From Candidatus Moranbacteria bacterium UBA1362 (GTDB lineage: Bacteria; Patescibacteriota; Minisyncoccia; Moranbacterales; GWC2-37-73), in the NCBI GenBank assembly GCA_002306085.1, contig DBRS01000017.1:1482-65481 (forward strand): a stretch of 64,000 bases of DNA, read 5' to 3'. Position numbers and translations under genes: made by a program. Shown here piece by piece: positions 4,895 to 56,154 of the stretch (position 1 is the first letter of the stretch; the number at the start of each line of letters is the position of its first letter). The notes beneath the pieces were generated by a model, which was not told where the DNA came from, ran no database searches, and saw only the letters and a list, made by a program, of their open reading frames with translations.

Positions 4895-6808
4895 TTATTC
4901 TTGTTTTTTATTATTTTTTGAATTATCTATCAGCTTCCGAACTTCGTCAAGATTTATTTGAGGTCTTTTTCTTTGCGATCTGAATTTTTTCGGAGCAATA
5001 TATTTCATCTGTGAAAGTTTTAGCGATTTTTCATCGGGCGCATAGAGTTTGTGCTCCACATGTTTTTCGAAGGGTTTTTGAGATGAAAAATCTTTTTGGA
5101 AATCTCCCTCTTTTTCCCGATTCTCTTTCGCGCGTTTACTAGTTTTTTCTCCGCGATCCGCGCTTTTCCCAGATCCCGCTTCTTCTCTTTCGTGCTGGGC
5201 GCGCTTCTCCTGGGCAAGTTTCTCTTTCGCCATCATGCGCTGGTAGTCTTTTAGGCACTCTCTGCAGAAAGTCGGCCTCTTTCCGTCCGGCTGGAAAGGA
5301 ACCTGAATATTATTGCCGCACATGTCGCATATTGCGTCGAACATCGGCCTTGAAATTGCAGGTTCAGCATCACTTTCCTTTGGAGCCTTCACAGAATCTT
5401 TTCCGGCAGTTTCTTTTTTTACCTCCGCCTCGGGTTTTGTCCCTTGTTGCGCCTGTTGTTTTTGCCGCGGCTCGCTGACTGTTTGTTCCTGCTGCAGCTT
5501 GTTGACCGTTTGGAATCCTCCCGAAGGCATGATTCCAGACCAGCGTGCAATCTTATCTTCCACTTCAGCTTTTGTCGACGCGTAGCGTTCGCGAGAGATC
5601 TGTATAACTTTCTGTTCATTTTCCAGCGTGTCTTCTATAAATATGGGGGGCAGAGTCACCGCCGAAAAAGCGTCTCCCGCGATTCCATCAATCATCAATT
5701 TAAGATAGATGTTGTATTTTGCGAGATTGACAATATCATTTTCCGTAAAGATAGGCGCGAATTCTTTTTCCAAAAATTCAGCGTCAACCGCGCCGACCCT
5801 GAATGAGATTATTGTTCCGGCATTGCCGAAAATCGCGTCGCGCACCTTTTCATCGATTTGAGATATATACTGATTAGCCAAAATCAAATTAAGTCTGTAT
5901 TTTCTGGCCTCCGAGAGAATATTGGCAAAAGATTCCGTCGCGAAGTTCTGAAACTCATCGACATAAAGGTAGAAATCATTGCGTTCTTCTTCGGGAATAT
6001 CAACACGCGCCATCGCGGCAAGCTGAATTTTTGTTATCATCATCGCGCCCAAAAGAGCGCTGTTATCTTCGCCAATTCTTCCTTTGGAAAGATTCAGGAT
6101 GAGAATTTTTTTGGAATCCATGACTTCCCTGATATCAAAAGACGACTGCGTCTGGCCGACAATGTTTCTAATAAGCGAACTTGATAAAAATTGCCCGACT
6201 TTGTTTTGAATAGGTGAAATAACTTCCTGCAGAACTCTGTCGTTCCATTTTGTGAATTCCTCGTTCCAAAACTGTTTCACAACGGGATCCGTGACTTTGT
6301 CCACGACTTTCTCGCGATATCTCTTGTCCACAAGAATTCTTGTCACGCCCAAAAGCGTGCTGCCCGGATATTCCAAAAGCGCCAAAATTGCATTGCGCAA
6401 AATATATTCCAAACGGGGACCCCACGAATCCGCCCATATTTTTTTGAACACACCGATAAGACCGGACGCAACTAGATGTCGGTATTCCGGATTGACAGCT
6501 TCCATGACATTGAAAGCTATCGGAAACTTTTGGTCCGCTGGATTGAGATATATAACATCCTTGATGCGCTCGGACGGAATCGCTTTTATGAGCTTCTCGG
6601 CGGTGTCTCCGTGAGGATCAATATAGCAAACTCCGTTCCCTCTTCGAATATCCTGCACGGCCATATTCTCAAGCAGATTTGTCTTTCCCATTCCGGTCTT
6701 TCCGATGATGTAAATGTGTCTGCGCCTGTCATCGGTTTTTATTCCGAAGACCCGTTCCTGGTTTCTGAAATTTGTTTTTGCAAAAAAAGTTATATCATTA
6801 TTCATCAC
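4895..6808 (-). CDS. VirD4/TraG/HerA-like P-loop ATPase (FtsK-HerA superfamily) with C-terminal C4 zinc ribbon and Lys-rich tail
   Basis: Walker A GKTGMGKT, Walker B YLYVDEFQNF, C-terminal CDMCGN...FCRECL. Confidence 0.6.
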   Translation of the reverse strand: MMNNDITFFAKTNFRNQERVFGIKTDDRRRHIYIIGKTGMGKTNLLENMAVQDIRRGNGVCYIDPHGDTAEKLIKAIPSERIKDVIYLNPADQKFPIAFNVMEAVNPEYRHLVASGLIGVFKKIWADSWGPRLEYILRNAILALLEYPGSTLLGVTRILVDKRYREKVVDKVTDPVVKQFWNEEFTKWNDRVLQEVISPIQNKVGQFLSSSLIRNIVGQTQSSFDIREVMDSKKILILNLSKGRIGEDNSALLGAMMITKIQLAAMARVDIPEEERNDFYLYVDEFQNFATESFANILSEARKYRLNLILANQYISQIDEKVRDAIFGNAGTIISFRVGAVDAEFLEKEFAPIFTENDIVNLAKYNIYLKLMIDGIAGDAFSAVTLPPIFIEDTLENEQKVIQISRERYASTKAEVEDKIARWSGIMPSGGFQTVNKLQQEQTVSEPRQKQQAQQGTKPEAEVKKETAGKDSVKAPKESDAEPAISRPMFDAICDMCGNNIQVPFQPDGKRPTFCRECLKDYQRMMAKEKLAQEKRAQHEREEAGSGKSADRGEKTSKRAKENREKEGDFQKDFSSQKPFEKHVEHKLYAPDEKSLKLSQMKYIAPKKFRSQRKRPQINLDEVRKLIDNSKNNKKQE

Positions 6809-6877
6809 TGGCTTCGTCGTTTAATTTTTTATGTTTTTCATAGATTCATGTGTGATTCGTGGTTTCGTATCGGTGAT

Positions 6878-8155
6878 TTATTCCACGGGCAAATTTGCCG
6901 GAGCTCCTCCGCGTTTTGCCTCAACGCGCGTAATCGAAGGAGCAACCACGCTCATATCAGGCAGATGAAATACCGTTGCAAGTTCTTCCGAGCTCAAAGT
7001 CATCTTAAATCCATCCATGCTTCTCGATCTGTATCTGCGCAAAATTTTCCTTTGTCTGTATCTCAAACGAGATTCCTTGAAAAAATAGGCGGAGACAGTT
7101 TTGGTATCACTCCCCGGCTTGAAACCGTTCAAATTTTCGTCATTAAACTGCTTTATTCCACCGAAGAAAGAAGTGACTCCGAGCGACCTGTCGAAATTTT
7201 CCCTGCGTCCCACATAAATGAAACGTCCCTTTGTGAAAAATTGCAATTTACCCAGATTATCTTCGATCGCTTTAAGAACCTCTCTTTCCCCTGGTGACAG
7301 TCTGAATTCGAGCGGCTGTTCCTCTTTCTTTGACTCTTCCTTAAATTCAACCGGCTTGGTAAGCGCGATTATCAAATTGGAAAATACATCCATAATATCT
7401 TTCCAAAGCCTTTTTAGAATTTCTTCCTTTTTCTCCTCCCTGCCTTTCAGTTTATCCAATATTTTCTTTCCTTCAGTCACTCCCCAACTCGGCTTGGCGG
7501 GATAAATGACCCATTGAAGCCACATTTTCTGGCCGGGACCTATTTTTCCCATTGTTTCGACGAGTCCGGCCAAAGGATCGATCATTTTTCCCGTGACTGA
7601 TTCTTCAAATTTCGGATAGGTTCTTATGGGATAAGCGTCATGTTTGGTAAATTCCAAATCTGCTCCCCACAAGTCCCATTGGCTGTTGGGAACTATTCTG
7701 GGTATATCATCCACGTAATCGGGAACCTCGACTATCCCCACATCCGGATACTGGGCGTAGATGTGCGACTCAACAAGACTGCGATGCTTTTTCAACGTTC
7801 TAATGTAAAAATGCACATTGCCTTCATCGCTTACTAGTTCCAGACTCATTATGTCTGTGAACGCTCCGTCGAGATTTATTTCAAGCTGATTGAATGTTTT
7901 TTCAACTCCGGCAAAACCAGCAAAAAGAGCCTCCATGGGTTTAGGGCTTTTTTCAATATTTTTTGGAGGAATGATTTCAAGCAACGTCCAGGTAAGGGAA
8001 GAAAAATATTTGTCCTGTATATGATACAGCCAAAGGATTTTGAAAAACAGATAAAAGATGGGCGGCAGAGCGATAAACCAAGTATGTTCCAATACCTGGC
8101 CCGATAACGCCAATGAATTTCCGATCTGGATAAATGCGCTTGAAATTATTTCCAT
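6878..8155 (-). CDS. Hypothetical membrane-anchored protein, likely operon partner of the VirD4/HerA-like ATPase
   Basis: N-terminal hydrophobic helix (WFIALPPIFYLFFKILWLY); 70-bp gap to downstream ATPase gene on same strand. Confidence 0.45.
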   Translation of the reverse strand: MEIISSAFIQIGNSLALSGQVLEHTWFIALPPIFYLFFKILWLYHIQDKYFSSLTWTLLEIIPPKNIEKSPKPMEALFAGFAGVEKTFNQLEINLDGAFTDIMSLELVSDEGNVHFYIRTLKKHRSLVESHIYAQYPDVGIVEVPDYVDDIPRIVPNSQWDLWGADLEFTKHDAYPIRTYPKFEESVTGKMIDPLAGLVETMGKIGPGQKMWLQWVIYPAKPSWGVTEGKKILDKLKGREEKKEEILKRLWKDIMDVFSNLIIALTKPVEFKEESKKEEQPLEFRLSPGEREVLKAIEDNLGKLQFFTKGRFIYVGRRENFDRSLGVTSFFGGIKQFNDENLNGFKPGSDTKTVSAYFFKESRLRYRQRKILRRYRSRSMDGFKMTLSSEELATVFHLPDMSVVAPSITRVEAKRGGAPANLPVE

Positions 8156-9555: not shown

Positions 9556-12063
9556 TTACCGCCTCACCTTTACTTTAAGGCCCTCTTCCAGAGCTCTTGT
9601 AATCGCGCTTACCACATCATCTATTTCCTCGCTGGTCAAGGTCCTGTCATCGGCGCCCAAAATTATATGAAAAGCAAAGCTTGAAGTGCCGTCATCAAAA
9701 TCAATGGCATCAAACAAATCTACATCGAGCACGATGTTCCCGCCGGCCGCCTGAATGGTCTGCAATATTTCATCAACTTTTATTGTGCCGTCCGTAACCA
9801 TTGAGACATCCCTGGTGACGCTCGGAAACCTGTTAATCGGACTGTATTCCCTTTCTTGCTGCACGAAACTGAAAAGTTTTTGCATGTCAAATTCAAACAT
9901 AGCGACTCGAGTATGAATATTAAACTGCGCAAGAACAAACGGATTTATTTCTCCCATAAAACCTACGGCGTCTTCATGCCCTTCAATTTTCACTTCGGCG
10001 CTCCTGCTTTCATGCCATAATGATCTCGGCGTGTCGACAGGACTGCTGTTGAAGTTATCATAGTAATAATCCGTTATGCCGATCCGCGAAAGAAGGTTGT
10101 CTACCGAGGATTTTGCGATGAAGAAATTTGATTCATGCCTCTTTTCCCGCTTTTCTCCTTTTTTGCCCTTATTTTCGAGAATAATCGCGCCAACAAGCAT
10201 TTCCTTCTCTTCCGGTAAAATTTCCTTCAGTCTGCCTGCAGCGGAAGATTTTGTGGTTTTTCCCGAAATTTCTTGCGCAACTTGTTCGATGGCCAAGTTT
10301 TGGGCAGGCCAATATACCCTTCCTATTTCAAAAATTTCAAATTCCCTGAAATATTTGAGGTTTTCTCTGGTATTTTTGAGAATATTGGGAACGAGACTTA
10401 CTCTCATGAGAGCCTGATCGGGATTGGCCGGATTTTCCAGTTCAAGATGCTTGAGCGAACCGAGCTGAGCAAGATTGGCGTCGCGCTGTGAATAAAAAGA
10501 ATAGTTATACATTTCGGAAAATCCCTGCGAAACAAGTACGTCTTTCACGAGCCTTGCAAAAATCCTCTTTTCGTTTATCTTCGCCGGCTGAAGTGAAACG
10601 AGCGGCGCCCGCGATTTGATTTTTTCGTATCCGTAAATTCTTCCTATTTCTTCAATCAAATCCTCCTCGGTCCTGAGATCAAGCCTGAACGTGGGAATGC
10701 CGACGCTGATATTTTTTCCGGAACCCGCCACTTTTAGATCAAGAGATCTCAGGATTTTCTTGACCGTGCCGGCCGGAACAGTTTCCCCAAGAAGCTTGTT
10801 TGCATAATCAAGTCTCAGTTTAATTTTCCAAGGATTGACTTTTTTGGGATACACGTCTTTGACGCCTTCCAGCTCGGCGCCTGCAGTGTGCTCAAGAATT
10901 TCAATAATCCTTGCCATGGCTTTCTCGGCGATGTTCGAATCAATATCTTTTTCATAGCGCAAGGCCGCATCGCTTATTATTCCCAAACGCATCCTTGTGC
11001 GCCTTATGGAGCTGGCATTGAAATTCGCCGATTCTATTACGATCCTTTTTGTATTTTTCGAAACTCCGCTTCCAAGTCCGCCCATTACTCCGGCAAGAGC
11101 AATGGGTTCTTTTTCGTTAGCGATGACAATATCATTTTCACCAAGTTCTTTAACGCTTTCATCAAGAAGCTTAAGCTTTTCTCCTTTTGCAGCCTTTCGT
11201 ACTATAATATTGGCTTTTTGGCCGTCTGAAATTTTATCAAAATCAAAAGCATGCATAGGCTGCCCAAGTTCAAGCATCACATAGTTGGTCGCGTCAACAA
11301 TGTTGTTTATCGGCCTGATTCCTGACATTTTCAACCGATTTTGGATCCATTGAGGCGAATCTTCCACTGTTATCCCTTTCATCACGGCCCCGACGTAGCG
11401 AGGACAAAGATTTTTATCTTTCACTTCAATTAAAAGCGCTTCCGTTTTCTTTTTTGCAACGCCGAGTCCGTCATAATCATATTCAACTTTTTTTCCTTCG
11501 AGAGCCGCTATTTCGCGCGCCATGCCGACATGCGAGAGCGCGTCATGACCGCGATTTGCCAAAACATCAATTTCTATTGAAACGTCGTCAAGTCCAAAAA
11601 TTTTCGCGATGGGTTGCCCTAACTTGGCGTTCTTTTTTAAAATCATTATTCCGCTGTGATCGGTTCCCAGACCCAGCTCATCTTCCGCGCAAAGCATTCC
11701 GAACGATTTTACTCCCCTAATTTCGGCCTCTTTGATTTCAAAACCTTTCGATCCGCCCAAGGGCGAAGCGGGAAGTTTGGCTCCAACCAACGCGACGGGA
11801 ACCCTCTGTCCCACCTCGATATTCGGCGCTCCGCAAACGATCTGAAGCACTTCCTTGCCAATATTAACTTTTGCGATCCTGAGCTTGTCGGCATTCGGAT
11901 GTTTTGATATTTCCATGATTTCCCCCACGACCACGTCTTTTAAATTTTCCAACTTTTCAATCCCTTCGATTTCAAAAGAATGCAACATCAAATTGTCAGC
12001 CAGTTTTTCAACCGACATTTTCGTCCCTGATAATTCTTTGAGCCAATTGTAACTGTATTTCAT
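9556..12063 (-). CDS. pheT: Phenylalanyl-tRNA synthetase beta subunit
   Basis: 835 aa; tRNA-binding N-terminal domain, B3/B4, B5 and FDX-ACB regions; follows pheS. Confidence 0.88.
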   Translation of the reverse strand: MKYSYNWLKELSGTKMSVEKLADNLMLHSFEIEGIEKLENLKDVVVGEIMEISKHPNADKLRIAKVNIGKEVLQIVCGAPNIEVGQRVPVALVGAKLPASPLGGSKGFEIKEAEIRGVKSFGMLCAEDELGLGTDHSGIMILKKNAKLGQPIAKIFGLDDVSIEIDVLANRGHDALSHVGMAREIAALEGKKVEYDYDGLGVAKKKTEALLIEVKDKNLCPRYVGAVMKGITVEDSPQWIQNRLKMSGIRPINNIVDATNYVMLELGQPMHAFDFDKISDGQKANIIVRKAAKGEKLKLLDESVKELGENDIVIANEKEPIALAGVMGGLGSGVSKNTKRIVIESANFNASSIRRTRMRLGIISDAALRYEKDIDSNIAEKAMARIIEILEHTAGAELEGVKDVYPKKVNPWKIKLRLDYANKLLGETVPAGTVKKILRSLDLKVAGSGKNISVGIPTFRLDLRTEEDLIEEIGRIYGYEKIKSRAPLVSLQPAKINEKRIFARLVKDVLVSQGFSEMYNYSFYSQRDANLAQLGSLKHLELENPANPDQALMRVSLVPNILKNTRENLKYFREFEIFEIGRVYWPAQNLAIEQVAQEISGKTTKSSAAGRLKEILPEEKEMLVGAIILENKGKKGEKREKRHESNFFIAKSSVDNLLSRIGITDYYYDNFNSSPVDTPRSLWHESRSAEVKIEGHEDAVGFMGEINPFVLAQFNIHTRVAMFEFDMQKLFSFVQQEREYSPINRFPSVTRDVSMVTDGTIKVDEILQTIQAAGGNIVLDVDLFDAIDFDDGTSSFAFHIILGADDRTLTSEEIDDVVSAITRALEEGLKVKVRR

Positions 12064-12159
12064 TTCACTTATAACTTCACCAGCTCCGCTAGCTTCACCA
12101 GAATTTAGAAATTTGAATTTCCCAAAAACCGAAGAAGCTAAAAGCTAACAAAGTCAATC

Positions 12160-13194
12160 TTAGAACTGTTTTATAAATCTTATATCACCGCTATGAAAAA
12201 ATCTGATATCGGTAATTTTGTTGCGCATCATAAGAAGTCTTTCCAGTCCGAATCCCCACGCAAATCCCTGATATTTTCCTCTCGGATAGCCGGATGAGAC
12301 AAAAACATTCTGATTTACCATGCCCGCGCCTCCGACCTCAAGCCATCCTCCGCCTTTGCATGTTTGGCAGCCTTTTCCTCCGCAAACGGTGCAGCTTATG
12401 TCAAATTCAAAACTAGGTTCGGTGAACGGAAAAAAGCTTGGCCGCAGTCTCACTGTTATTTTTTTCTTGAAAAATCTGGAAAAAAATTGCTCGGCAATGA
12501 ATTTGAAGTTTGCCACACTCACATCTTCGCCAACCATAAGAGCTTCGAACTGATAAAAAGTGTGTTCGTGTTTGGCATCGGTAGCTTCATTGCGGAAGCA
12601 TTTTCCGGGAGATATTATCCGAAGCGGAGGTTCGTGATTTTCCATATGTCTTATCTGTACCGGGGAAGTATGCGGACGCAACAAAATTTTGTCTTTTTGT
12701 TCTCCGTCGCTTTTGATCCAAAACGTATCCCACTTGTCGCGCGCCGGATGATCGGGAGGCATATTGAGCGCATCAAAACTGTAAAAATCGGTTTCCACTT
12801 CCGGACCGTCTGCAATTTCAAATCCCAGCGAAATGAATATATCTTCCAATTCGTTCTGAATTTGCGTAAGCGGATGAAGATGCCCTCGTTTCATTTTAAC
12901 GGCAGGAATCGTAATATCGATTTTTTCAGCCGCAAAATCAAAACTTTTCTGTTTGATTTCCTGGCCTTTTTGCGCTAAAGCTTCCTCTATTTCCCTTTTG
13001 GCGGAGTTTGCAAGTTGTCCAACGGATTTTCTTTCGTCCGGCGAAAGATCCTTAAGCCCTTTCAGAATGGATGTGAATTCACTCTTCCTGCCCAAAAATT
13101 TCACCCTGATGGCGTTTATTTCATCCTCATTGGCGGCGCTTTGTATCTGCAAAATCGCCTCATTTCTGATTTTGTTTATTTTTTCGCTAAGCAT
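12160..13194 (-). CDS. pheS: Phenylalanyl-tRNA synthetase alpha subunit
   Basis: class II motifs (FRNEATD..., GFAWGFGLERL); 344 aa. Confidence 0.9.
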   Translation of the reverse strand: MLSEKINKIRNEAILQIQSAANEDEINAIRVKFLGRKSEFTSILKGLKDLSPDERKSVGQLANSAKREIEEALAQKGQEIKQKSFDFAAEKIDITIPAVKMKRGHLHPLTQIQNELEDIFISLGFEIADGPEVETDFYSFDALNMPPDHPARDKWDTFWIKSDGEQKDKILLRPHTSPVQIRHMENHEPPLRIISPGKCFRNEATDAKHEHTFYQFEALMVGEDVSVANFKFIAEQFFSRFFKKKITVRLRPSFFPFTEPSFEFDISCTVCGGKGCQTCKGGGWLEVGGAGMVNQNVFVSSGYPRGKYQGFAWGFGLERLLMMRNKITDIRFFHSGDIRFIKQF

Positions 13195-13202
13195 AGAAAA
13201 AA

Positions 13203-13643
13203 TTAAATATTTTTGAGATAATCTTCAATTATTTTGTTATGATCAAACGCCAATCGCGGCAAAGATTTCAGTGATTCCCATTTATAGTCATCAACATCAC
13301 TTCCTATTTTTACATTCCCTTCAATTTCTGCGGCAAAAGCTACATTTATATTCTGATCGGGATGCCTGCCTGGAGCGCTATACACTCCAATTATCTTTGA
13401 AGATTTTACGGATACGCCCAATTCCTCCAATACCTCACGCTTTACCGAATCTTCAACCGTTTCATCCCATTCTATGTACCCCCCGGGAAGAGCCCAATAT
13501 CCCTTGAACGGCTCGCTTCCTCTTTTTATAAGCAAGATTTTGCCGTTCTTGATAATAACGGCATCCACAGTAACGTTTCTGCCGGCAAACCTTCCGCATT
13601 TTGGACACGGTTTATTATTTTTCAAGTGCATACTACTTTTCAA
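13203..13643 (-). CDS. Nudix hydrolase with N-terminal CxxC
   Basis: Nudix box GGYIEWDETVEDSVKREVLEELG. Confidence 0.8.
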   Translation of the reverse strand: MKSSMHLKNNKPCPKCGRFAGRNVTVDAVIIKNGKILLIKRGSEPFKGYWALPGGYIEWDETVEDSVKREVLEELGVSVKSSKIIGVYSAPGRHPDQNINVAFAAEIEGNVKIGSDVDDYKWESLKSLPRLAFDHNKIIEDYLKNI

Positions 13644-14859
13644 ATTTTATTCTAACAAATCCCATTTTGCCTATCTTTAAAACCTTTTGGTCTTTTTCTT
13701 TCGTGACGACGCTTTGCACATCGGTTATTTTCTCATCGTCTAATGATACGCCTCCTTGTTCTATTTTTCTTCTCGCGTCGCTAAGACTCTTCGCATTTTT
13801 TGATTCCAAAATGAGCTGCGCGAGCTTTATGGAATCGCCCTTGACAACAAATTTCGGAGCTTCAGCAGGAATTTCTTTTTTTGAAAAAGTATTGATAAAA
13901 TACTGGCGAGCTTTGCGAGACTCCGTTTCCCCGTGATAAAGCTTCACTATTTCTCCTGCAAGGCGCAGTTTTGCATCGCGCGGATTAAGTTTTTCATCAT
14001 CCATCTCTTTTTTTATCTTTTCCACCTCATCAAGTGGCACTCTGGTGCAACTTATGAAATATTTCACAATAAGATCATCGCCCACGCTCATCACCTTACC
14101 AAACATGGTGTTTGGATCGTCCGTAATGTTGACTGTATTCCCCCAGCTCGAACTCATCTTTCGTCCGTCTATACCTTCAATAAGCTCATTTAATATTATG
14201 TCTTGCGGTTTTTGTCCGAAATGTTTCTGCATTTCCCTGCCTGCGAGGATATTGAACTTTTGATCTGTTCCTCCTATTTCAACATCCGCCTTAATCATTA
14301 CGCTGTCATATCCCTGCATAAGAGGATACAGAACTTCCCTGAGAGAAACTCTTTTTCCCGCGGTCAATCTTTTCCTGATATTTTCACGCGCGGAAAACTC
14401 AGCAAGAGAAAAAATATTTGCCTGCTCAGATATTTCAGAATACGTAAGCTTTCCAAGCCATTCGGAATTCCTGTGTGATTCAACTTTATTCATGTCCAAA
14501 ATCTTTCCAGCCTGCTGGAGATATGTCCTAAGATTGGACTCGACCGTTTCTTTTGAAAGCATGGGCCTTTCGCTTTCCTTGTCGGAAGTATCTCCAATTT
14601 GAGCGGTGAAATCTCCAATAATGAATACTATCTGATGTCCAAGTTGTTGCAAGTCGCGAAGTTTTAAAAGCGTAACGGCGCGGCCGAGATGAATATTCGA
14701 ACTTGTGGGATCAATTCCGAGCTTCACCCTGAGTTTCTCTCCGGCAAGAAGCCTTTTTTTAAGGTTTTCTTTGTCTATCACCTCTGTCACTCCTCGCGTG
14801 AGAATTTCATCAATTTGTTTTTCCAAGTTTTTGTCCATATACAGCCATAATAGCAACAA
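13633..14859 (-). CDS. tyrS: Tyrosyl-tRNA synthetase
   Basis: HIGH-type motif (SSNIHLG) and KMSKS-type motif (KMSSS), C-terminal S4-like domain. Confidence 0.88.
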   Translation of the reverse strand: MLLLWLYMDKNLEKQIDEILTRGVTEVIDKENLKKRLLAGEKLRVKLGIDPTSSNIHLGRAVTLLKLRDLQQLGHQIVFIIGDFTAQIGDTSDKESERPMLSKETVESNLRTYLQQAGKILDMNKVESHRNSEWLGKLTYSEISEQANIFSLAEFSARENIRKRLTAGKRVSLREVLYPLMQGYDSVMIKADVEIGGTDQKFNILAGREMQKHFGQKPQDIILNELIEGIDGRKMSSSWGNTVNITDDPNTMFGKVMSVGDDLIVKYFISCTRVPLDEVEKIKKEMDDEKLNPRDAKLRLAGEIVKLYHGETESRKARQYFINTFSKKEIPAEAPKFVVKGDSIKLAQLILESKNAKSLSDARRKIEQGGVSLDDEKITDVQSVVTKEKDQKVLKIGKMGFVRIKFEK

Positions 14860-15031
14860 AACGGCTTGGATGCAATATGCTTCAGACGCAATCTATTGAC
14901 AAATTATTCTTCTGTTGCATAATAAAAATAATATAGGATTTTCATCACGAATTATCTATATTTAGTTACTAGTAGTTTAAAAAATTTAATTAAAGTGCCG
15001 TGGAACATCTTTTAAAACAAGGAGGTTGAAA

Positions 15032-15742
15032 TTGAAAAAATGTCTGATGTCTCTGCGGTTATGGCATCTGAGATTGGAGAAGCAGAAAGGATTGATTTTT
15101 CTGGCGCTGTCTGCGTTCTCATTCGCAGGATGCATAATCTTCGGCGAATTCTTGGCGCCACATAGCAATGCCCTTTTGCTTTTTCCGGCAAAAGCGGTAA
15201 AATGTTTCGGTTTCTCTTTTCTTGTATTTGGAATGTTGCTGATTCTCTTCGGAAACAATAGTTGCCCGAGAGATTCTCTCACGGGACTGATCAACGGACG
15301 AATCTTCATGGAAACCGAAATGAAACGCCGTCGCTCGCTATTAGCCACAGAAAGCAGATTTGTCATCTTTTTCATTGACATAGACGGCCTCAAAAAAATA
15401 AACGACATCCACGGGCATAGGGCGGGAGACGAAGCAATTTTGGCTGTCGTAGCATGCATCAAGAAAATTCTTCGAAAAAATGACATTTTCATACGCTACG
15501 GCGGAGATGAATTTGTGGTGGCAACCACTTTCAGCAAAGACTCTTTGGATTATGACCCATGCGCCTTTGAGTTTAGAATCAGAGAATCTGTAAGGACCCA
15601 TCAGTTATTCTTCGAAGACGTACGAATACCTCTTTCAGTGTCCATAGGCAGAGAAGTATTCGAACCGCGCATGGACATAGACAAAGCAATAAAACTTGCC
15701 GACGAGAAAATGTATGAAGAAAAAAAGCGAAAAGCAGCATGA
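15032..15742 (+). CDS. Membrane-anchored GGDEF-domain diguanylate cyclase (start adjusted to TTG/ATG 6-20 nt after AAGGAGG RBS)
   Basis: two N-terminal TM helices; GGDEF domain with intact RYGGDEF active site; RBS AAGGAGG at 15019-15025. Confidence 0.75.
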   Translation: MKKCLMSLRLWHLRLEKQKGLIFLALSAFSFAGCIIFGEFLAPHSNALLLFPAKAVKCFGFSFLVFGMLLILFGNNSCPRDSLTGLINGRIFMETEMKRRRSLLATESRFVIFFIDIDGLKKINDIHGHRAGDEAILAVVACIKKILRKNDIFIRYGGDEFVVATTFSKDSLDYDPCAFEFRIRESVRTHQLFFEDVRIPLSVSIGREVFEPRMDIDKAIKLADEKMYEEKKRKAA

Positions 15743-15788
15743 AAAAAAGCCGGGAAGGTATACACCTATCCCGGCTTATATTTTTTCT
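15741..15788. terminator. Bidirectional rho-independent terminator (GGDEF gene + / small ORF -)
   Basis: AAAAAAAGCCGGGA-loop-TCCCGGCTTATATTTTTTCT, 8-bp GC-rich stem. Confidence 0.7.
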
Positions 15789-15796
15789 GGATGATT

Positions 15797-16069
15797 TTAG
15801 AGTAATCCTAATCTTTTTTTTGCTTCAAAAACCTGATGCGAGTTCATCTGCCCGGATTTCTGCATGGCTTCAAGAGTTTTAAGGATTTCAGCCTTGTTTT
15901 TCTGGATATTTTTTGGTGTCATTACCTTTTTTATAAGTTTGCCTCTTTCTTCGGGACTCATCTTTTCAAGTTTTTTCATTGCCATTCTCTGCATGAAACT
16001 CATGTTCTGCGGATCCAGAGGATTATCAGTTTTTTTATCTTTATCTTTTTTCTTAAAAATATTAAACAT
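15797..16069 (-). CDS. Hypothetical Lys-rich small protein (90 aa)
   Basis: ORF on dominant strand between terminator and secF; no motif. Confidence 0.35.
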   Translation of the reverse strand: MFNIFKKKDKDKKTDNPLDPQNMSFMQRMAMKKLEKMSPEERGKLIKKVMTPKNIQKNKAEILKTLEAMQKSGQMNSHQVFEAKKRLGLL

Positions 16070-16158
16070 ACTTTTAAAATTGTTAATTTGATATTTTGAT
16101 TATTAAGTCTTATGAATGAAAAACAAACTTACTGCTTATAGCATTTGTTATCTAAGGC

Positions 16159-17055
16159 TTATTTTTTTACCATCAGATTATAACTCGTCACAAGCAATGC
16201 CGACGCGATGAATATGGAAGAATATGTTCCGATAATGACACCTATGAGCAGTGCCAGCGCGAAATATTTTATCGACAAGCCTCCAAAAAGATATATTGCC
16301 AGCAGCGTTATCACCACAGTCAGCGAAGTATTAATCGAACGAACAAGAGTTTCATTAAGACTCCTATTTACTACGTCCGAAAAGCCTTCTTTATTCGACC
16401 CCCTGAGAAGATTCTCCCTTGTCCTGTCATAGACCACAATCGTATCGTGCACGGAAAATCCTAATATTGTCAAAAGTGCGGCTATGAACGGTATTCCGAT
16501 TTCCACCCCGTAGAAATGTCCGAGCACTGAAAACACTCCTGTTGTGATCAAGATGTCATGAGCGAGAGCAATCGCTGCGCCAAGTCCATATTTCCATGAT
16601 TCGACAGGGCGCGAAACCTTGCGGAAAGCCCAAGCAATATACGCCATGATCATCGCTATCGCCAACGCGATTGCTTGGAGCGATTTTGATTTGAGCTCTT
16701 TAGACACCGTGGAATTTATGAAATCCACGCTTTGTTGTGTGGCACCCGAATATTTTTCTCTGATAGCGTTCCAAACATCATCATTTGTTTTGTCATCATC
16801 CGCGGAATATCTAATGAGCGCTATATTTCCGTCCGAAGCTTGAATTATTAGACTGCCCAAATTTAAATGCTGAAGAGTTTCTGAAATTTCTTGATTGGAC
16901 GGAACGCTATCGGCAAATCCAACCTTCATAAGCGTCCCTCCTGTAAAGTCGATGTCATATTTAAGTCCCCAAAAAGACAAACTCAAAATACTGGCAAAAA
17001 CAAGTATTCCCGAAAATATATAAGCGTATTTGGCTTTACCGATAATATTGAACAT
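16159..17055 (-). CDS. secF: Protein translocase subunit SecF
   Basis: 6-TM SecD/F family C-terminal domain; immediately downstream of secD. Confidence 0.85.
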   Translation of the reverse strand: MFNIIGKAKYAYIFSGILVFASILSLSFWGLKYDIDFTGGTLMKVGFADSVPSNQEISETLQHLNLGSLIIQASDGNIALIRYSADDDKTNDDVWNAIREKYSGATQQSVDFINSTVSKELKSKSLQAIALAIAMIMAYIAWAFRKVSRPVESWKYGLGAAIALAHDILITTGVFSVLGHFYGVEIGIPFIAALLTILGFSVHDTIVVYDRTRENLLRGSNKEGFSDVVNRSLNETLVRSINTSLTVVITLLAIYLFGGLSIKYFALALLIGVIIGTYSSIFIASALLVTSYNLMVKK

Positions 17056-27862: not shown

Positions 27863-29464
27863 TTAGCTCACGTTCAATCCCGTTGGATTCGCCGGCGCGG
27901 CCATGTCAAGATCGGCATAATAACCCATATTGGGACAAATACTCGGATCCTGCAGATGAAAATTGCTTTGAGCGGCATCAACAAATATCGATTGCGGATC
28001 GCTTCTAATTATTATCAGCGAATCGGGATCGAAGCCGAAAATGTTCCGAGCTTGAGTATAGGTATAATGTTCCACTCCTGACGGCATATAACGGGAAGCA
28101 AATTGAAAATCCGAATGAGGAGAAATGAAGCAGTTGTTGTTTGATGTCACCTGCTGCAACAAAGATTCCGCCACGTTTTCGGCGTCGGTATAAACTTCGC
28201 TTTTTGAAATATACGCGGGAGTGTCCCAATTGGCCCCCTGAACCCTCGAATTCAAACCACAGAAAATATTGTTGCGGATCGTATGTCCGGTGCCAGTCCA
28301 CAAAGACATCAAAAGATCAAGCCCGACGAAAGTATTATACTCAACAGTGGCGTTTTGTCCGGCAATAGCAACCAACCTGGGATCATTCATGATACCGTCA
28401 CTGTTGTTTCCCATTGCCCTAAACCCCCTGTCAACATTGTAGCTGAGATTGCGCACAAAATGCATATTTGAAGCTACAATAGTGCCAAGGCTTCCGCAAT
28501 CATGAATAATATTGTTTTCTATAAGAACAGGTCCGGCGGTGCAATTCTTAAAAAAGAACGCTTGAGGAACTTCATATATTTCATTATTCTTTATTTCTAT
28601 ATATCCCGTTCCTCCGCCTTCAAATCCCAAATACGATTGCCTTGAAAGCATCGTTACTGCTCCAAAATGCTGCGCATCAATAACGCCGTCCCATTGGTTC
28701 GGTTGCTCCCAATCATATATTCCATGTAACTTGTTGCCGTGTATGAAAATATTATACGGGCCTCCCCAGTCTCCTCTGTCGATCCGGACAATTCCCGGAT
28801 TATCTCCGCCGTCACAGGCAATGTCATGAATATTGTTATTTTTTATAGTTATATCATGTGTTTGAGCACTTTGTGTTCCTCCTTCAACATTCACAATGCC
28901 ACCCATTATTTCAAATCCCTCGATAACCCAATATGCCTTGAGGCCCACCGTGACAGCTCTCTTGAAAACTTCGCCATTGGGAGGAAATCCGGGATCAAAC
29001 CTTTGATCCGTTAAATCCAAAATTGGGGTCTCACCCGGATAGTTTCTGACAGTAATCGGATTGTTTTCCGCACCGCTGGCTATGGAATACGCGGGATGAT
29101 TCGACGCCCAGCCGCTAAAGTCTTTTATGCTTATAAATCCATAAGCGTCCTTGAAGCAATATCCATCTGTTAGTTTCTGCCCTTCCGGACAACTGGTTGC
29201 GCCAGCGCTGCTGGCGTCTCTTGCAATGCCTCTCACCATCGCATTGTCAAAATCATACGTGCCGCCACGCGCATATATCGTGTCCCCCGCTTGCGCCCTT
29301 GTGAGCGCCGGTAAAAATGTCTTGAATGGTTCCACTATGGTTCCGGATGCGACATCGTTTCCGTCAGGTGCGACATAATATTCCGCCGCTTCGGAATTTT
29401 TCGTAAAGCAAAAAAAACTGAGAAAAAGCACTGATAAAATTAATTTTCGAGCATGTCTTTTCAT
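27863..29464 (-). CDS. Secreted right-handed parallel beta-helix protein 1 (pectate-lyase-like fold); start moved to second in-frame ATG (track start 29494)
   Basis: signal peptide MKRHARKLILSVLFLSFFCF...SEA; PbH1-type repeats (NNNIHD, NNIIHD); TTACGTAA repeats between the two ATGs. Confidence 0.7.
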   Translation of the reverse strand: MKRHARKLILSVLFLSFFCFTKNSEAAEYYVAPDGNDVASGTIVEPFKTFLPALTRAQAGDTIYARGGTYDFDNAMVRGIARDASSAGATSCPEGQKLTDGYCFKDAYGFISIKDFSGWASNHPAYSIASGAENNPITVRNYPGETPILDLTDQRFDPGFPPNGEVFKRAVTVGLKAYWVIEGFEIMGGIVNVEGGTQSAQTHDITIKNNNIHDIACDGGDNPGIVRIDRGDWGGPYNIFIHGNKLHGIYDWEQPNQWDGVIDAQHFGAVTMLSRQSYLGFEGGGTGYIEIKNNEIYEVPQAFFFKNCTAGPVLIENNIIHDCGSLGTIVASNMHFVRNLSYNVDRGFRAMGNNSDGIMNDPRLVAIAGQNATVEYNTFVGLDLLMSLWTGTGHTIRNNIFCGLNSRVQGANWDTPAYISKSEVYTDAENVAESLLQQVTSNNNCFISPHSDFQFASRYMPSGVEHYTYTQARNIFGFDPDSLIIIRSDPQSIFVDAAQSNFHLQDPSICPNMGYYADLDMAAPANPTGLNVS

Positions 29465-29468
29465 ATTT

Positions 29469-29502
29469 TTTACGTAAGGTTTTACGTAAAACATTACGTA
29501 CT
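29469..29502. promoter_or_regulatory. Three tandem TTACGTA(A/C) sites (12-bp spacing) at or overlapping the translation start of beta-helix protein 1
   Basis: TTTTTACGTAAGGTTTTACGTAAAACATTACGTACTT; 24-mer nearly identical to 47970-47993. Confidence 0.55.
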
Positions 29503-29569: not shown

Positions 29570-31309
29570 TCAGCTCACGCTTAATCCCTGCGGTGAAGCC
29601 GGAGCGATCTCATCTCCCGAAGTCGTTGCGCCTTCGATCCAATCAGGGTCTCCCAAAGCGTTTTGCAAAATTGAAACATCAGCAAGATTCAGGACTCCTT
29701 CAACCCAATCGTTATCATCTGGGTTTGTCGCTCCGATGTAAGAAGGGATCGTAACGTCATCAAGATACGGATGTCCGCTTCCGATTCCGCCGTTTGAAAT
29801 GGTGGCCGAACCCGACACCGCATGCTCTTCACGAGTGATATAGCGGCTTGATCCGGAAGTGCCGCTCATCAAATTGTCGATTCCCTCAGAGCTTGCTTTG
29901 CGATAATTGCCGGAAATTTGAGGATAATTTGTCTCCCAATTGGAAATGAGCCCTATATCCCTGTGTCCGGGCGCGACCAAGTCCGCATTCCAAACGTCAT
30001 TGTTATTGTCAGGACGATAAAGATAGTTGTTTTTAAAATGGAAATCGTTCAGATTAAGAACCGTCGAATCGTCATAATAAGAAGCGCAACCGGAATCACC
30101 GGTGTTACACATATAGTCCCTAAAGCCCACCTGCCTGTTCCGATCACTGTCTACAAAGTTATCGATAATATTGTTATAGGTCCAGTCTTTGCGAAATGCC
30201 ACATCTCCCGCAGGATCCCAAAAATAATACTTGTTGCTTGTCGTGACGTATGAAAGAGAATAGTGAAGCCTCTTTACGTAATTATTATATATGCATGAAT
30301 AGAGCGGAGCGTAATCTCCGGTATACCCCACGCTTATATGGCTGTCCGGAATTATATTGTTGTAAATTTGCGCCAGATCCTGATTGGTCTCTATCATTTC
30401 CGACCCCAAAACAAGATTATGATGGATCTTGTCGCCGAAATGCTTGCGTGATTCCGTGATTGTTCCATTCACGGCGTGCGGGATTATTGTCTGACCAGCC
30501 TTGTGTTTGAAAGCTCTCGTCGACCTGTCGGTTGTTTCTTTGAAAAGGTTGTATCTGACAATATTCCTTGCAATCAAAGAATTTTCATTATAAGCCCCGT
30601 CAGCCAAAACATTTGTTTTCGAAATGAGCTCATATGAAACCGCATAGTCGCTCAAAAAAACTATCTGCGCGCAATTTGTTCCCGCGGTATCGGACGCTCC
30701 ATTGGAATCAAAAAAGTTATATTCAATCACCGAATCCATCGGGACATTGGCATAGATTCCGGCAGGATTATCTCCGCCAGTACCGGCATAATTGTCGTGT
30801 ATGTAACAATACCTCACAGTAAATGGACCGCCGGAAAGAGCGATTCCGGCGTTAGTCCCTCCGGATATCTCCAGACGCTCAAATCTCCAATATTTGACAC
30901 ATCCCGGTCCGGGACATTGGTTTTGATATGCTCTTAGTCCGATGACGCACCAGTCTCCGGAGCCCTGAATACGCGCCCATTCGCCGGGATAGGATTGTAT
31001 GGAGCTATAATCATCGGCGGTCCCGTCAGCTTTTATTTCAAACGTCTCGCGCCCGTCTCCCGAACTCGCATAAGTTCCGCCGCGAAGGTATATGTCATCC
31101 CCTCCTGCCATCGCGTCAAGGGCGGCCTGCACGTTCACGTATGCATCGCCGTCGCTTCCGCCGCAATTTCTGGCAGCGGTTGAATAGTTGCCCGACGTGC
31201 AATTTGCCGCAAGCGTCTGGTCGACATAAATATTCGCCGCTTCGGATTTTCCGGCAAACGCAAAAACACTCAGCAACGCGAAAAAAAATAATATCTTTTT
31301 TTGGTTCAT
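29570..31309 (-). CDS. Secreted right-handed parallel beta-helix protein 2 (paralogue of 27863-29464)
   Basis: signal peptide MNQKKILFFFALLSVFAFAGKSEA; beta-helix repeats; shared N- and C-terminal motifs with paralogue. Confidence 0.7.
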   Translation of the reverse strand: MNQKKILFFFALLSVFAFAGKSEAANIYVDQTLAANCTSGNYSTAARNCGGSDGDAYVNVQAALDAMAGGDDIYLRGGTYASSGDGRETFEIKADGTADDYSSIQSYPGEWARIQGSGDWCVIGLRAYQNQCPGPGCVKYWRFERLEISGGTNAGIALSGGPFTVRYCYIHDNYAGTGGDNPAGIYANVPMDSVIEYNFFDSNGASDTAGTNCAQIVFLSDYAVSYELISKTNVLADGAYNENSLIARNIVRYNLFKETTDRSTRAFKHKAGQTIIPHAVNGTITESRKHFGDKIHHNLVLGSEMIETNQDLAQIYNNIIPDSHISVGYTGDYAPLYSCIYNNYVKRLHYSLSYVTTSNKYYFWDPAGDVAFRKDWTYNNIIDNFVDSDRNRQVGFRDYMCNTGDSGCASYYDDSTVLNLNDFHFKNNYLYRPDNNNDVWNADLVAPGHRDIGLISNWETNYPQISGNYRKASSEGIDNLMSGTSGSSRYITREEHAVSGSATISNGGIGSGHPYLDDVTIPSYIGATNPDDNDWVEGVLNLADVSILQNALGDPDWIEGATTSGDEIAPASPQGLSVS

Positions 31310-54003: not shown

Positions 54004-55210
54004 CTACTTTCTGTCTATTTTGCTTTTGAGATACGCGTAATATTCTTTGTTTATTTCCCCTTCGGTCGAATATGCCTTTATGGCTTTTTGTCTTGCGTTA
54101 TCTCCCATGTTCTCCCTGAATTCCCTGTCGGCAACAAGCTTGTCAAGCTTTTCACACCATTCCTCAGTTCCGCTTGCCACAAAACCGTCAACTCCGTCTT
54201 CGATTGCTTCACGAAAAGTTCTTGTGGCCGTGGCGATTGTCGGAACACGCAAGATTCCGGCTTCAAAAAATTTAAGTTCCGATTTTGCTTCACAAAAAGG
54301 ATTGCCAATTTCAAGAGGCGCTATGTTTATATCCATTCTAGCCACATTGAAAAAGTGCTCCTTGCGCGGAACGAAAGAAAGTTTTTTGATTCTGTCGCGG
54401 AAAGTGTTGAGTTTGTTTGTAAATTCAAGATAACCAGCAACATACAATTCAACTTCGGGATATTTTTCCATTATCATGTAGAGCGGCTCGATGACGGTTT
54501 CAAAATCCCTGTTATGGCTTGCGCTTCCCGAAAAATATCCTATTCTCACTTCGCTATGCGCTTCATATTTTTTATTGATGATGTCCTTGGCAAGTTTAAG
54601 ATCTTCGGCAGAAAGTTTGTTGCGAACAATAAAAACTTCTTTTCCCTTTTCGCGCAGCTTGTCGGCCAAAAACGATGTTGTTGTCGTGCACGTTTTGACA
54701 TAAGGATCGTTTAGAATTTCTGCTCCAAGACCGTTTTCAAAAAACTTTTTTTCCGTCTCGTTGAGATTTTTGTAGAAATCCTGCTGCTTTACGCATTCAA
54801 AGTCGAAAGTCAAATCGTCCGTTTCAAATATGATTTCTCCTCCGCATTCTTTTATTTTATCAATAAAGGACGCGATGTTCGCCGAATACGGAACTCTGTG
54901 AAAAATGAACACTTTGAAGTTTCGGACATATAAATCCAACCAGAGATTTTCCTGAATCGTGATTGAAGCGGAAATCCCGTGAAAGTTCAGCTCCTCGGCG
55001 ACATTCTTCACGCGATAGCGCCAGCTGTCTCCGACTGCGCCGCTTGAAATGAAAAGCACGTCCCCCGACCCGGCATGTCTCAAAACAGCCCAAAGCCCCA
55101 AAAAAGTTTTTTTGGAACCGGCGACAAGACCCTCATCCCTGAGCAGTAAACGTATTTTATTCAGATATCTTCCAAGCATAGAGTTAGGTTTATGTTTAGC
55201 TATATCCATT
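54004..55210 (-). CDS. Glycosyltransferase family 1 (GT4-type); start moved to ATG (track TTG start at 55248 overlaps a terminator hairpin)
   Basis: GT-B C-terminal domain pattern. Confidence 0.7.
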
Positions 55211-55212
55211 AT

Positions 55213-55243
55213 AGATAAAAACCCGTTTAAAGCCAAACGGGTG
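55213..55243 (-). terminator. Rho-independent terminator after secreted protein gene
   Basis: CCCGTTT-ggcttt-AAACGGG followed by TTTTTAT on minus strand. Confidence 0.6.
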
Positions 55244-55341
55244 GTCAAATAGCATGTTCAAATTATGGTCATTGAGATTAGGCGCGGGGCATGACCGCTT
55301 TTTTGCGTTCCTGACATGACACACGGACCTGATATATGGCG

Positions 55342-56154
55342 CTATTTCACTGTCAGACTGCTTGGCATTGCGGGGGGCGACAAGTCGACGTCAGGAATCC
55401 CGTTCCATATCTCATAGTCGTCGAATTGCCACCAACCCTCTCCCGGAAGGCATTCTACCGTAGCTTTGATGCTTGGAATATCCAAGGGTCTTGTGAAATC
55501 TCCCGTGATGATCGCATTGTCGTTGAAAGCATATGCGCCATCAAATTTCGCCCACGCAATGCCGTCCATGTTCTGGAATGTGGCGCCTGAGGATTTTTTC
55601 ATATATATCTCGACATGCAGCCAGTCGCCAATCACATAAGGGACACTCGCATATTTTGTCACTGTGGAATTGCCGTCCCAACTCATGCCCTGCTCCATCT
55701 GCCACTCCAGTCCCATGGTTTTGCTCGACGAATCATAAGATTGCCAGATGAGCTCAGTGTGAGGACCGGATCCGGTCGGAGCAGACATGATCTTCACATT
55801 CCAAATACCGCTATAATTTCCCCAGTAACCGCTTTCGTATTTTGCCCAATAAGAAACATATATCTCGCCCGAAGGAGGAAATCCGGCAGGCAACCTGAAG
55901 ATCAAGTCGCCTCCTCCGTCCTCATCGTTATGAGAAGTCCTTACGGATCTACCCGTGTGGCCCGAAGGATACGTGGGAACGCCCTCGCCATATAACCAAA
56001 GGGTGTTGACATATCCTAACATATCAACCAGACTGCTTTCATCAAATGTGACTCGGGAAAGCCTGTCCGCAGCTTTCCCTTCTGACGCAAAACTAAAAAT
56101 TCCGAAGGATAGAACGAAGAAGATCAATATATTTTTTTTCACAAGCCTTTTCAT
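55342..56154 (-). CDS. Secreted hypothetical protein (270 aa) ending in the same C-terminal tail as the beta-helix proteins
   Basis: signal peptide MKRLVKKNILIFFVLSFGIFSFASEGKA; C-terminus ...SPPAMPSSLTVK. Confidence 0.6.
   Translation of the reverse strand: MKRLVKKNILIFFVLSFGIFSFASEGKAADRLSRVTFDESSLVDMLGYVNTLWLYGEGVPTYPSGHTGRSVRTSHNDEDGGGDLIFRLPAGFPPSGEIYVSYWAKYESGYWGNYSGIWNVKIMSAPTGSGPHTELIWQSYDSSSKTMGLEWQMEQGMSWDGNSTVTKYASVPYVIGDWLHVEIYMKKSSGATFQNMDGIAWAKFDGAYAFNDNAIITGDFTRPLDIPSIKATVECLPGEGWWQFDDYEIWNGIPDVDLSPPAMPSSLTVK

Follow-up and report, generated by a model that had tools for sequence, protein, structure and literature searches.

A position-locked C-terminal tail with FN3 strand-A ancestry on secreted proteins of a narrow Moranbacteria-like clade

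The locus and its three tail genes

The window analyzed here, a 64,000-nucleotide stretch of contig DBRS01000017.1, is chromosomal DNA of Candidatus Moranbacteria (Patescibacteria, or candidate phyla radiation, CPR) with a G+C content of 42% and 57 called genes, including those for FtsW, MurG, TrmD, Mur ligases, MraZ and penicillin-binding proteins. One of its proteins is identical to a Candidatus Moranbacteria protein from an NCBI metagenome-assembled genome. Three genes on its minus strand encode proteins that carry a signal peptide at one end and the same short peptide, hereafter the tail, at the other; this tail is the subject of the present report. The first-pass annotation, which was made from the sequence alone, had described these three open reading frames (ORFs) with their tails and their three different stop codons, and all were found as described.

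The first gene, beta-helix 1 (27863..29494, -), encodes a 543-aa cargo protein that Pfam assigned to a Pel9A-like/DUF1565-like right-handed beta-helix. Its signal peptide (29387..29494, -) was taken from the translation, with the cleavage site inferred by eye between ...FTKNSEA and AEYY, and its tail, DMAAPANPTGLNVS, occupies 27863..27907 (-) together with a TAA stop codon. The second gene, beta-helix 2 (29570..31309, -), encodes a 579-aa cargo protein whose fold, as revealed by AlphaFold2 (AF2) and Foldseek, is nearest to the PL9/PL6 polysaccharide lyases; inspection of the N-terminus gave a signal peptide (31238..31309, -) that ends in ...FAGKSEA before ANIY, and the tail, DEIAPASPQGLSVS, lies with a TGA stop codon at 29570..29614 (-). 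The third gene (55342..56154, -) encodes a secreted cargo protein of 270 aa with no known domain, as neither Pfam nor NCBIfam gave a match. Its signal peptide (56071..56154, -), again placed by inspection of the N-terminus, ends in ...FASEGKA before ADRL, and its tail, DLSPPAMPSSLTVK, is followed by a TAG stop codon (55342..55386, -). All three tails and stops were read from the translations and codons, and the proteins end in ...APANPTGLNVS, ...APASPQGLSVS and ...PPAMPSSLTVK, respectively.

Beta-helix 1 has 289 homologues, with which it shares a core that stops at CPGMGYY, and the tail is an optional add-on to this core. Beta-helix 2 has 764 relatives in the representative library, and the core of this family stops at 'DPxWIEG'. 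The 270-aa protein has just two relatives among 5.8 billion clusters; P0122 is its orthologue, with 49% identity and the C-terminus ...TTAPNAPSGLSVS. The three cargo proteins had initially been regarded as mutually unrelated. This holds for the 270-aa protein, which is truly unrelated to the others, but the two beta-helix proteins fall into the same BLAST single-linkage group and are distantly related.

Each of the three proteins was found to end exactly one residue after the L-x-V, not two to three residues after it as had been claimed, and the earlier statement that no transmembrane (TM) segment follows was correct. The gap between the stop codon and the next gene is 75-165 nt for each gene, so that there is no room after the stops for the remaining ~240 nt of a fibronectin type III (FN3) domain. 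Terminators had been proposed after at least two of the genes; a terminator consensus scan revealed a hairpin at 55242-55221, ~100 nt past the stop of the 270-aa gene, but no match directly after either beta-helix stop. After beta-helix 1, the sequence shows an AT-rich inverted repeat of 11 bp (ATAAAACTTAT...ATAAGTTTTAT). Read-through, recoding and a pseudogene remnant as explanations of these gene ends were ruled out by the three different stop codons, the non-FN3 nature of the post-stop sequence, the short gaps and the recurrence of the same gene ends in independent assemblies.

One additional window ORF, 6878-8155, encodes a DUF8128 membrane protein that ends in ...GGAPANLPVE. This protein has no signal peptide, misfits P-x-x-P-x-G-L-x-V-x and was rejected as a member of the group. 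It adjoins a TrwB/VirD4-type coupling ATPase with a treble-clef zinc finger (4895-6808), the two genes together spanning window positions 4895-8155 (-).

Consensus, position and specificity of the tail

A total of 24 tail proteins was collected, and these fell into eight BLAST-unrelated groups; 36 of the 47 carrier pairs from the same organism showed no similarity apart from their signal peptides and tails. The 24 tails gave the consensus [GS]-D-[TV]-[TV]-[AP]-P-A-x-P-[ST]-G-L-[SN]-V-S-COOH, corresponding to a tag of 12-15 residues (for example, GDTTAPASPSGLSVS), and every one of them ends one residue after V/I. In particular, P-9, P-6, L-3 and V/I-1 are each present in 24/24 tails and G-4 in 22/24, although the use of the motif to collect the tails partly inflates these counts. 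Position -5 is occupied by Ser or Thr in 23/24 tails. The terminal residue is Ser in 16/24 and N, Q, K, L or G in the other 8/24, and there is no Arg cluster.

The strict motif was found 18 times at a C-terminus and never at an internal position in 34 kilo-amino acids (kaa) of genes from the tail organisms sampled. The tail was absent from about 1,400 genes of other Moranbacteria-like and non-Patescibacteria loci; in ~450 kaa of such comparison genes the strict motif occurred once, three residues from an end, and it was absent from the 1009 shadow ORFs of 80 FtsW-anchored loci. A looser regular expression also matched a conserved 357-aa housekeeping protein ending in ...GEPMPGVEVLVKN; these matches were set aside as due to chance or specific to that family.

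We also found that the tail and the signal peptide occur together. The three window tail proteins are the only window ORFs with a canonical cleavable signal peptide (hypergeometric P=3.4e-5), and the pooled loci of the tail organisms contained 19 proteins with both features, one with a signal peptide only, none with a tail only and 99 with neither (Fisher P=4e-21). Signal peptides were judged by a heuristic combined with inspection and not by SignalP. As the heuristic over-calls (MurG and MurC are examples), the statements on signal peptides rest on inspection of the N-termini, which revealed in every full-length carrier an n-h-c signal ending in ...(S/N/K)xA with cleavage before A.

The first-pass view of a position-locked motif on otherwise different secreted proteins was borne out by these results, and the motif is conserved at the peptide level. 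Two findings that the first-pass annotation had named as counting against its view did not appear: internal copies were absent, and the other secreted proteins in the sampled loci do carry the motif. The tail matched no Pfam or NCBIfam model, and a literature search, in which the literal motif strings were included, returned no description of the tail, consistent with the earlier remark that it resembles no known signal. Nearly every exported soluble protein sampled in one narrow Moranbacteria-like clade carries the tail, which looks like an undescribed C-terminal tag of the secreted proteome.

Distribution across loci, strains and phyla

The tail was present on all signal-peptide proteins of the window (3/3) and of loci L122 (4/4), L001 (6/6), L003 (2/2) and L041 (5/5), and outside the window the tailed secreted proteins form consecutive runs of 4 (L122), 6 (L001), 5 (L041) and 2 (L003). 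The window organism and its strains have seven tail genes in about 85 kb. L122, which belongs to the same organism, contains four secreted genes ~4 kb beyond the window start, with the endings PTGLAVS, PSGLIVS, PSGLNIS and PSGLNVS. In L001, an orthologue of beta-helix 1 with 79% identity occupies the same TrmD-[cluster]-FtsW slot, and the six consecutive endings are PTGLSVS, PSGLSVS, PSGLSVS, PTELVVS, PSGLSVL and PSGLNIS. The orthologue of the 270-aa protein and a neighbouring paralogue in L003 end in PSGLSVS and PTGLSVN. The DNA beyond the window end contained no further secreted proteins. L121, from the same organism, is the 183-kb contig ERZ2931792 NODE_5, L001 is SRR29243437_6802 and L041 is ERZ795054 NODE-137; such contigs recur in anaerobic digesters and groundwater, and the window organism is present in more than 80 samples.

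The 80 FtsW-anchored metagenomic loci form a tail-blind sample of 1.05 Mb and about 1000 genes. Among them, the tail was present only in L041 (on five of its five signal-peptide proteins) and L042 (on one), both among the closest relatives. With the tail in 2/80 loci, a general Moranbacteria trait was ruled out. A property of the beta-helix family alone was likewise ruled out for the Moranbacteria-like clade by the eight unrelated groups, whereas it does hold in other phyla. There, beta-helix-2 homologues (Desulfobacterota, Bacteriovoracaceae, Marinimicrobia) are single secreted proteins within exopolysaccharide-type clusters; they often end in ...PPSGLQISPN, ...QNLRVQP, ...PTGVGVQIIQ or ...GATIQ, and their neighbours have no such tails. 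A scan of genome contigs returned relatives from non-Patescibacteria only. The combination of position lock and spread over unrelated secreted proteins was observed only in the narrow Moranbacteria-like clade.

Apart from the tail, the beta-helix-2 family is embedded in exopolysaccharide-type clusters, with GT4 glycosyltransferases (GTs), UDP-GlcNAc 2-epimerase-like proteins, flippases and DUF4012, from Patescibacteria to Desulfobacterota. Such clusters are located at L040:533-9360 and around position 10000 of L013, L016, L035 and L037. This setting suggests a conserved role of the family in surface polysaccharide processing.

Conservation of the peptide and recombination

Comparison of the tail-coding sequences revealed that roughly half of the identical tail residues within a single genome, or more, are encoded by different codons, and that between orthologues the codons switch while the residue is kept (Leu TTG/CTA, Ser AGC/TCA). 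Since the codons differ where the residues match, selection acts on the peptide, and an element of the DNA itself, for instance a recombination site or a repeat, was ruled out as the cause of the conservation. Additionally, the motif is kept where overall identity has fallen to 45-49% and the linker directly before it varies freely, and no eroded, frameshifted or extended tail was present among the 24 genes. The data demonstrate that the tail is a selected, exposed C-terminal tag specific to signal-peptide proteins.

Recombination through the tail DNA does occur, as a consequence of the conservation and not as its cause. A strain-variable cassette cluster of the same organism begins about 4 kb beyond window position 1, where we compared L122:16229-21508 with L123:16222-17982 and L121:16323-17435. 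L122 has four genes with signal peptide and tail in this cluster. L123 has a fusion of gene 1 with the end of gene 4, joined by a 16-nt overlap inside the tail-coding 'DTTPP', and ~3.5 kb is deleted; in L121, gene 4 is kept and genes 1-3 are gone. Over 104 nt, the stretches of genes 1 and 4 that encode the signal peptide share 92% identity. Both conserved gene ends, 5' and 3', act as recombination handles.

Relationship of the tail to the FN3 domain

Four homologues, P0262, P0130, P0172 and P0129, were found to continue after the beta-helix core with 'D-I-T-A-P-S-I-P-T-G-L-T-A-T-A-I-S-S-S-R-I-N-L-F-W...GYRVYRN...'. The BLASTP alignment of beta-helix 2 with P0262 extends to the last residue of the window protein (DEIAPASPQGLSVS against DITAPSIPTGLTAT, E=2e-58), and Pfam fn3 matches P0262 from the tail point on, over model positions 2-78 of 84. 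Judged through P0262, the tail covers about positions 2-9 of the 84 in the fn3 model. Upon comparison with FN3 (PF00041), the tail is homologous to and collinear with the 'D-x-T-A-P-x-x-P-T-G-L-T-A-T' at the fn3 start of P0262 and P0130, and the Pro, Pro and Leu positions are conserved alike, as is a hydrophobic residue two after the Leu. In contrast to FN3, the tail does not have the complete seven-strand beta-sandwich of ~84 model positions, strands B-G are not encoded downstream, and Pfam fn3 gave no match in the window proteins.

As the homologues run on at the tail point into a full fn3, the tail corresponds to an FN3 linker and strand A with strands B-G missing. On these alignments, its origin as a truncated FN3 linker plus strand A is settled. 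The first-pass annotation had named homologues that continue into an Fn3-like domain as evidence that would speak against a tag. Such homologues do exist and they bear on the origin only: the tail is to be read as an orphan FN3 A-strand and not as a de novo motif.

A related arrangement was present in L006, a more distant 202-kb Patescibacteria contig, where two adjacent secreted multi-Ig proteins (9995-16428) end in ...DTTPPGQVTDLTAP and ...DTTTPGQVTNLLAS. These tails share a grammar of 'DTTPP + short strand' with the internal domain starts of the same proteins and, read by eye, would represent the A-strand of another FN3 subtype. The next gene in L006 encodes a membrane-anchored FN3 + FG-GAP protein, and an Rce1-like/CPBP membrane protease (5491-6867), a type I signal peptidase and a prepilin are encoded just upstream.

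Structure and cargo

AF2 models built on deep alignments revealed well-defined bodies with coiled ends. For beta-helix 2, the body had a predicted local distance difference test score (pLDDT) of 88 and a predicted template modelling score (pTM) of 0.91, and the tail was a coil with a pLDDT of 54-58. The model of beta-helix 1 had a pLDDT of 91.7, with the last ~20 residues (about 523-543) in coil and the blocks of residues 531-543 averaging 47-51. As the tails are low-confidence coil in both models, packing in cis is not predicted. The beta-helix 2 body matched 1ru4, 7o78 and 1dbg (PL9/PL6 polysaccharide lyases) in Foldseek, and other cargo gave weak PL14, TIG and He_PIG matches; the cargo is predicted from these matches to be glycan-active or adhesin-like.

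Homologues elsewhere carry various modules at the C-terminal position of the tail, namely the T9SS (type IX secretion system) C-terminal domain (CTD), PG_binding_1, dockerin-like repeats, FG-GAP arrays, and TM + basic sorting tails. Since these are anchoring or sorting modules, this position is where anchoring devices go. We also observed another C-terminal module there, often after a Cys-rich spacer, which is a helical repeat of the form 'E-[LI]-x-x-Y-[IM]-x-x-W-[KL]-x-G-x-[ILV]-x-x-x-[EQ]-L-[ML]-x-x-I-x-x-W-[KR]'. Its carriers in the beta-helix-1/-2 family are P0013, P0021, P0059, P0146, P0152, P0227, P0229, P0237, P0246 and P0307; one named member is from Altiarchaeota, and P0059 is from Woesearchaeota.

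Comparison with known C-terminal signals and docking systems

Small tripartite C-terminal sorting domains, such as those of LPXTG/sortase, PEP-CTERM/exosortase, GlyGly-CTERM/rhombosortase and MYXO-CTERM/myxosortase, have seven published attributes (Haft et al., bioRxiv 10.1101/2023.06.07.544157). The tail has five of the seven and does not qualify as a member of this family. Like these domains, it sits at the very end of the protein, recurs many times in a genome (7 in ~85 kb of the window organism and its strains, 6 in L001 and 5 in L041) and has at least three near-invariant signature residues; its carriers mostly have a signal peptide and are unrelated elsewhere, and beta-helix homologues in other phyla bear such signals at this position. 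Unlike them, it has neither a TM helix (attribute 4) nor a terminal basic cluster (attribute 5) and spans just 12-15 residues. The first-pass proposal of a novel sorting or processing tag was supported in its tag-like character, but neither an enzyme nor an acceptor was found in the sampled loci, and the clade is narrow. The T9SS CTD differs as well, being a folded domain of ~70-100 residues against 12-15 residues for the tail, and PF18962 gave no match; it is present instead in homologues such as P0085, P0094, P0098, P0114 and P0213.

We next consider donor-strand systems, that is, chaperone-usher pili, type V pili and TasA fibres (PMC9674648). These share with the tail a short terminal strand of alternating hydrophobic residues whose structure would be meaningful only upon insertion into the beta-sandwich of another subunit. 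However, donor and acceptor there belong to one subunit family with a known incomplete acceptor fold, whereas here the donors would be diverse enzymes. At ~1 kb outside the window start is a SipW/TasA-like operon (window 24-1046 (+) and L121:11954-15159). It is headed by the gene for a 403-aa lamin-tail-domain (LTD) protein, whose 3' part forms the first window ORF, and it further encodes a SipW-like S24/S26 signal peptidase and two TasA/Peptidase_M73-like proteins with a 'GGATxAxFSD' SipW-type signal. None of its products has the tail, and the LTD/SipW/TasA-like operon is likely a donor-strand-exchange fibre system.

Dockerin-cohesin, SLH, PG_binding and LysM modules resemble the tail in their C-terminal place on secreted glycan-active enzymes, and some homologues have dockerin-like or PG_binding_1 modules there. 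In contrast to the tail, which is an unstructured peptide, these are folded domains of 40-70 or more residues. The pilins that are substrates of TfpO/TfpM are glycosylated on a C-terminal Ser/Thr (PMC9829042). They have in common with the tail a position-locked C-terminal signal in which the last residue is usually Ser; however, a third of the tails have no terminal Ser/Thr, none of the carriers is a pilin, and the sampled loci showed no TfpO-like gene. The tail also differs from PDZ-type ligands, as its last residue is non-hydrophobic in 23/24 cases (Leu once) and its hydrophobic residues are at -1 and -3. Canonical C-terminal ligands of the PDZ type have a hydrophobic residue at position 0 and specificity at -2.

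Possible function of the tail

We tentatively propose, with somewhat less than even confidence, that the tail still works as a beta-strand and is bound in trans by a surface acceptor, which would retain the exoenzymes on the cell. The tag would mark the soluble proteins exported through Sec and signal peptidase I in the narrow Moranbacteria-like clade, and it descends from an FN3 linker and strand A after the loss of strands B-G. After export, the exposed tail would be read in trans as a beta-strand, with P-9, P-6, L-3 and V-1 packing onto a cell-surface acceptor of Ig/FN3-like or other strand-binding type; these conserved residues, by which strand A is defined, point into the core of a complete FN3 domain and as such would pack into an acceptor. 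Bound in this way, glycan-active exoenzymes and binding proteins would stay attached to the tiny monoderm cell, and the tail would function much like a dockerin or donor strand. The gene ends that encode the shared signal peptide and tail also act as recombination handles that expand, contract and reshuffle the gene cassettes between strains. A more specific form of this proposal, 'split FN3' docking, appears somewhat unlikely. According to it, the tail would be the missing strand A of a surface FN3/Ig-like acceptor and would provide a non-covalent tether for essentially the whole Sec-exported enzyme repertoire of this ultrasmall, episymbiotic cell, with the tag DNA doubling as a cargo-swap recombination handle; if true, it would be a peptide-sized analogue of cohesin-dockerin or of pilus donor-strand exchange.

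Several observations weigh against retention by a surface acceptor. In the sampled loci, no conserved gene recurs next to the tail genes. A search of ~150 kb of tail-organism DNA with an FN3 hidden Markov model, covering a fraction of any one genome, detected no FN3 body, whether strand A was present or not; an acceptor that lacks the A-strand might escape this model. A Peripla_BP_6 binding protein in L005 has a signal peptide without the tail. P0273, a near-identical copy of 29570-31309 from another assembly, ends in ...APASLQGLSVS, with Leu for the otherwise invariant Pro at -6, and its cluster has seven member sequences. Additionally, 78 of the 80 related Moranbacteria-like loci have no tail, most of them simply having no secreted proteins near FtsW, and in other phyla a related tail occurs on the beta-helix-2 family alone, so that at least part of the tail history is family-specific. 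Any function in retention, binding or processing is entirely inferred.

Other functions were weighed against the same evidence. An extracytoplasmic peptidase or transpeptidase might cut within or before P-[ST]-G-L and attach the protein to the wall or to lipid, in the manner of sortase, exosortase or PorU but without a membrane-spanning retention segment. The tail does have attributes 1, 2, 3, 6 and 7 of the small C-terminal sorting domains, its lock at one residue after V/I in 24/24 tails is what recognition of a free carboxylate would impose, and P-[ST]-G loosely recalls (L)PxTG. We nevertheless consider a covalent sorting signal unlikely, since both elements that hold substrates at the membrane for the known enzymes are missing, namely the TM helix (attribute 4) and the Arg cluster (attribute 5), the sampled cluster neighbourhoods encode no candidate sorting or processing enzyme, and the FN3 strand-A heritage fully explains the conserved residues. 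That heritage also bears on a glycosylation or glycan-tethering sequon, in which a GT-C/PMT-like or TfpO/PglL-like enzyme would O-glycosylate the Ser/Thr at -5 or the terminal Ser, the glycan protecting the C-terminus or linking the protein to surface polysaccharide. The frequencies of Ser/Thr at -5 (23/24) and of terminal Ser (16/24) and the TfpO/TfpM precedent for C-terminal Ser/Thr (PMC9829042) are consistent with such a sequon, as is the location of tail genes among GT genes (GT1 at 54004-55248, GT4 at 62476-63615, and a GT4/GT4/DUF4012/MurJ cluster in L040). A 625-aa multi-pass membrane protein (58732-60609, +), encoded 2.6 kb away from the third tail gene with GT1 and GT4 genes on its flanks, moreover has GT-C-type similarity to PMT_2 (E=0.016) and to NF047440 (LA_3751/LA_3752 putative glycosyltransferase, E=1e-7). 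However, these GT-C matches are under the curated cut-offs, the terminal residue is not Ser/Thr in 8/24 tails, known O-glycosylation sequons assign no role to the invariant L-x-V, and an internal sequon needs no position lock. S/T-G/N before Leu is also typical of ordinary FN3 A-strands (P0262 PTGL, P0129 PTGI). Overall, glycosylation appears improbable.

The tail might also be a functionless vestige, with identical cut points arising without selection because a single FN3 truncation after strand A was copied via the conserved 'DTTPP...' linker DNA, through recombination or gene conversion, during genome reduction. The full-FN3 homologues, the between-strain recombination inside the tail DNA (the L123 deletion of 3.5 kb at its 16-nt junction) and the Pro-to-Leu change at -6 in P0273 would all fit. 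On the other hand, the motif and the stop position are kept at 45-79% orthologue identity with synonymous sites largely randomised, the adjacent linker varies freely, and none of the 24 tails is frameshifted, eroded or extended; the different codons of paralogues within one genome argue against recent conversion. A vestige is thus quite improbable. A generic role in cis, in which the Pro-rich tail would cap the C-terminus against exoproteases or form an edge strand on its own last domain or in a homo-oligomer, would agree with the finding that nearly all short-ended beta-helix-2 members, across phyla, keep an extension of 12-25 residues ending in an alternating hydrophobic strand (GLSVS, GLRIQ, GATIQ, GIIR). 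We regard this role as very unlikely, because AF2 docks the tail on neither beta-helix body, because the same tail on at least eight unrelated folds would need the same cis contact on all of them, and because plain protection needs neither the invariant L-x-V nor a fixed length.

The tail is new to the literature searched. It is a C-terminal exoprotein tag that is most like sorting and anchoring tags, and it is a homologue of FN3 strand A and not an FN3 domain. It bears on how Patescibacteria/CPR cells with tiny genomes keep and organise their surface enzymes. To our knowledge, all described small C-terminal sorting signals follow a motif-TM-Arg design that is read by membrane enzymes, and a TM-free tag of 14 residues would be a different solution. 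In practical terms, the tail would offer an easy sequence criterion for predicting which proteins of these organisms are surface-exposed and a bait peptide for a receptor or enzyme, and retention by a strand-binding acceptor could possibly provide a natural strand-complementation pair of biotechnological interest. If the tail is selected but purely cis-acting or protective, it will still be useful as an annotation rule and as a warning against taking 'truncated FN3' ends for assembly or gene-calling artefacts.

A second recurrent C-terminus

A different recurrent C-terminus, '...IL-x-[ST]-F-K-F-[TLI]-[NDEK]-COOH', was observed in many Moranbacteria-like loci, near the dcw cluster, on proteins of 200-350 aa with an N-terminal anchor. 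The genes with this ending are located at L060:15954-16706, L061:15528-16190, L074:18130-18756, L075:7960-8700, L079:18626-19642, L083:824-1894, L087:17855-18889, L088:11840-12727, L098:3665-4453, L099:7967-8704 and L113:18316-19149. The '...IL-x-[ST]-F-K-F' ending may represent one conserved family or another C-terminal motif.

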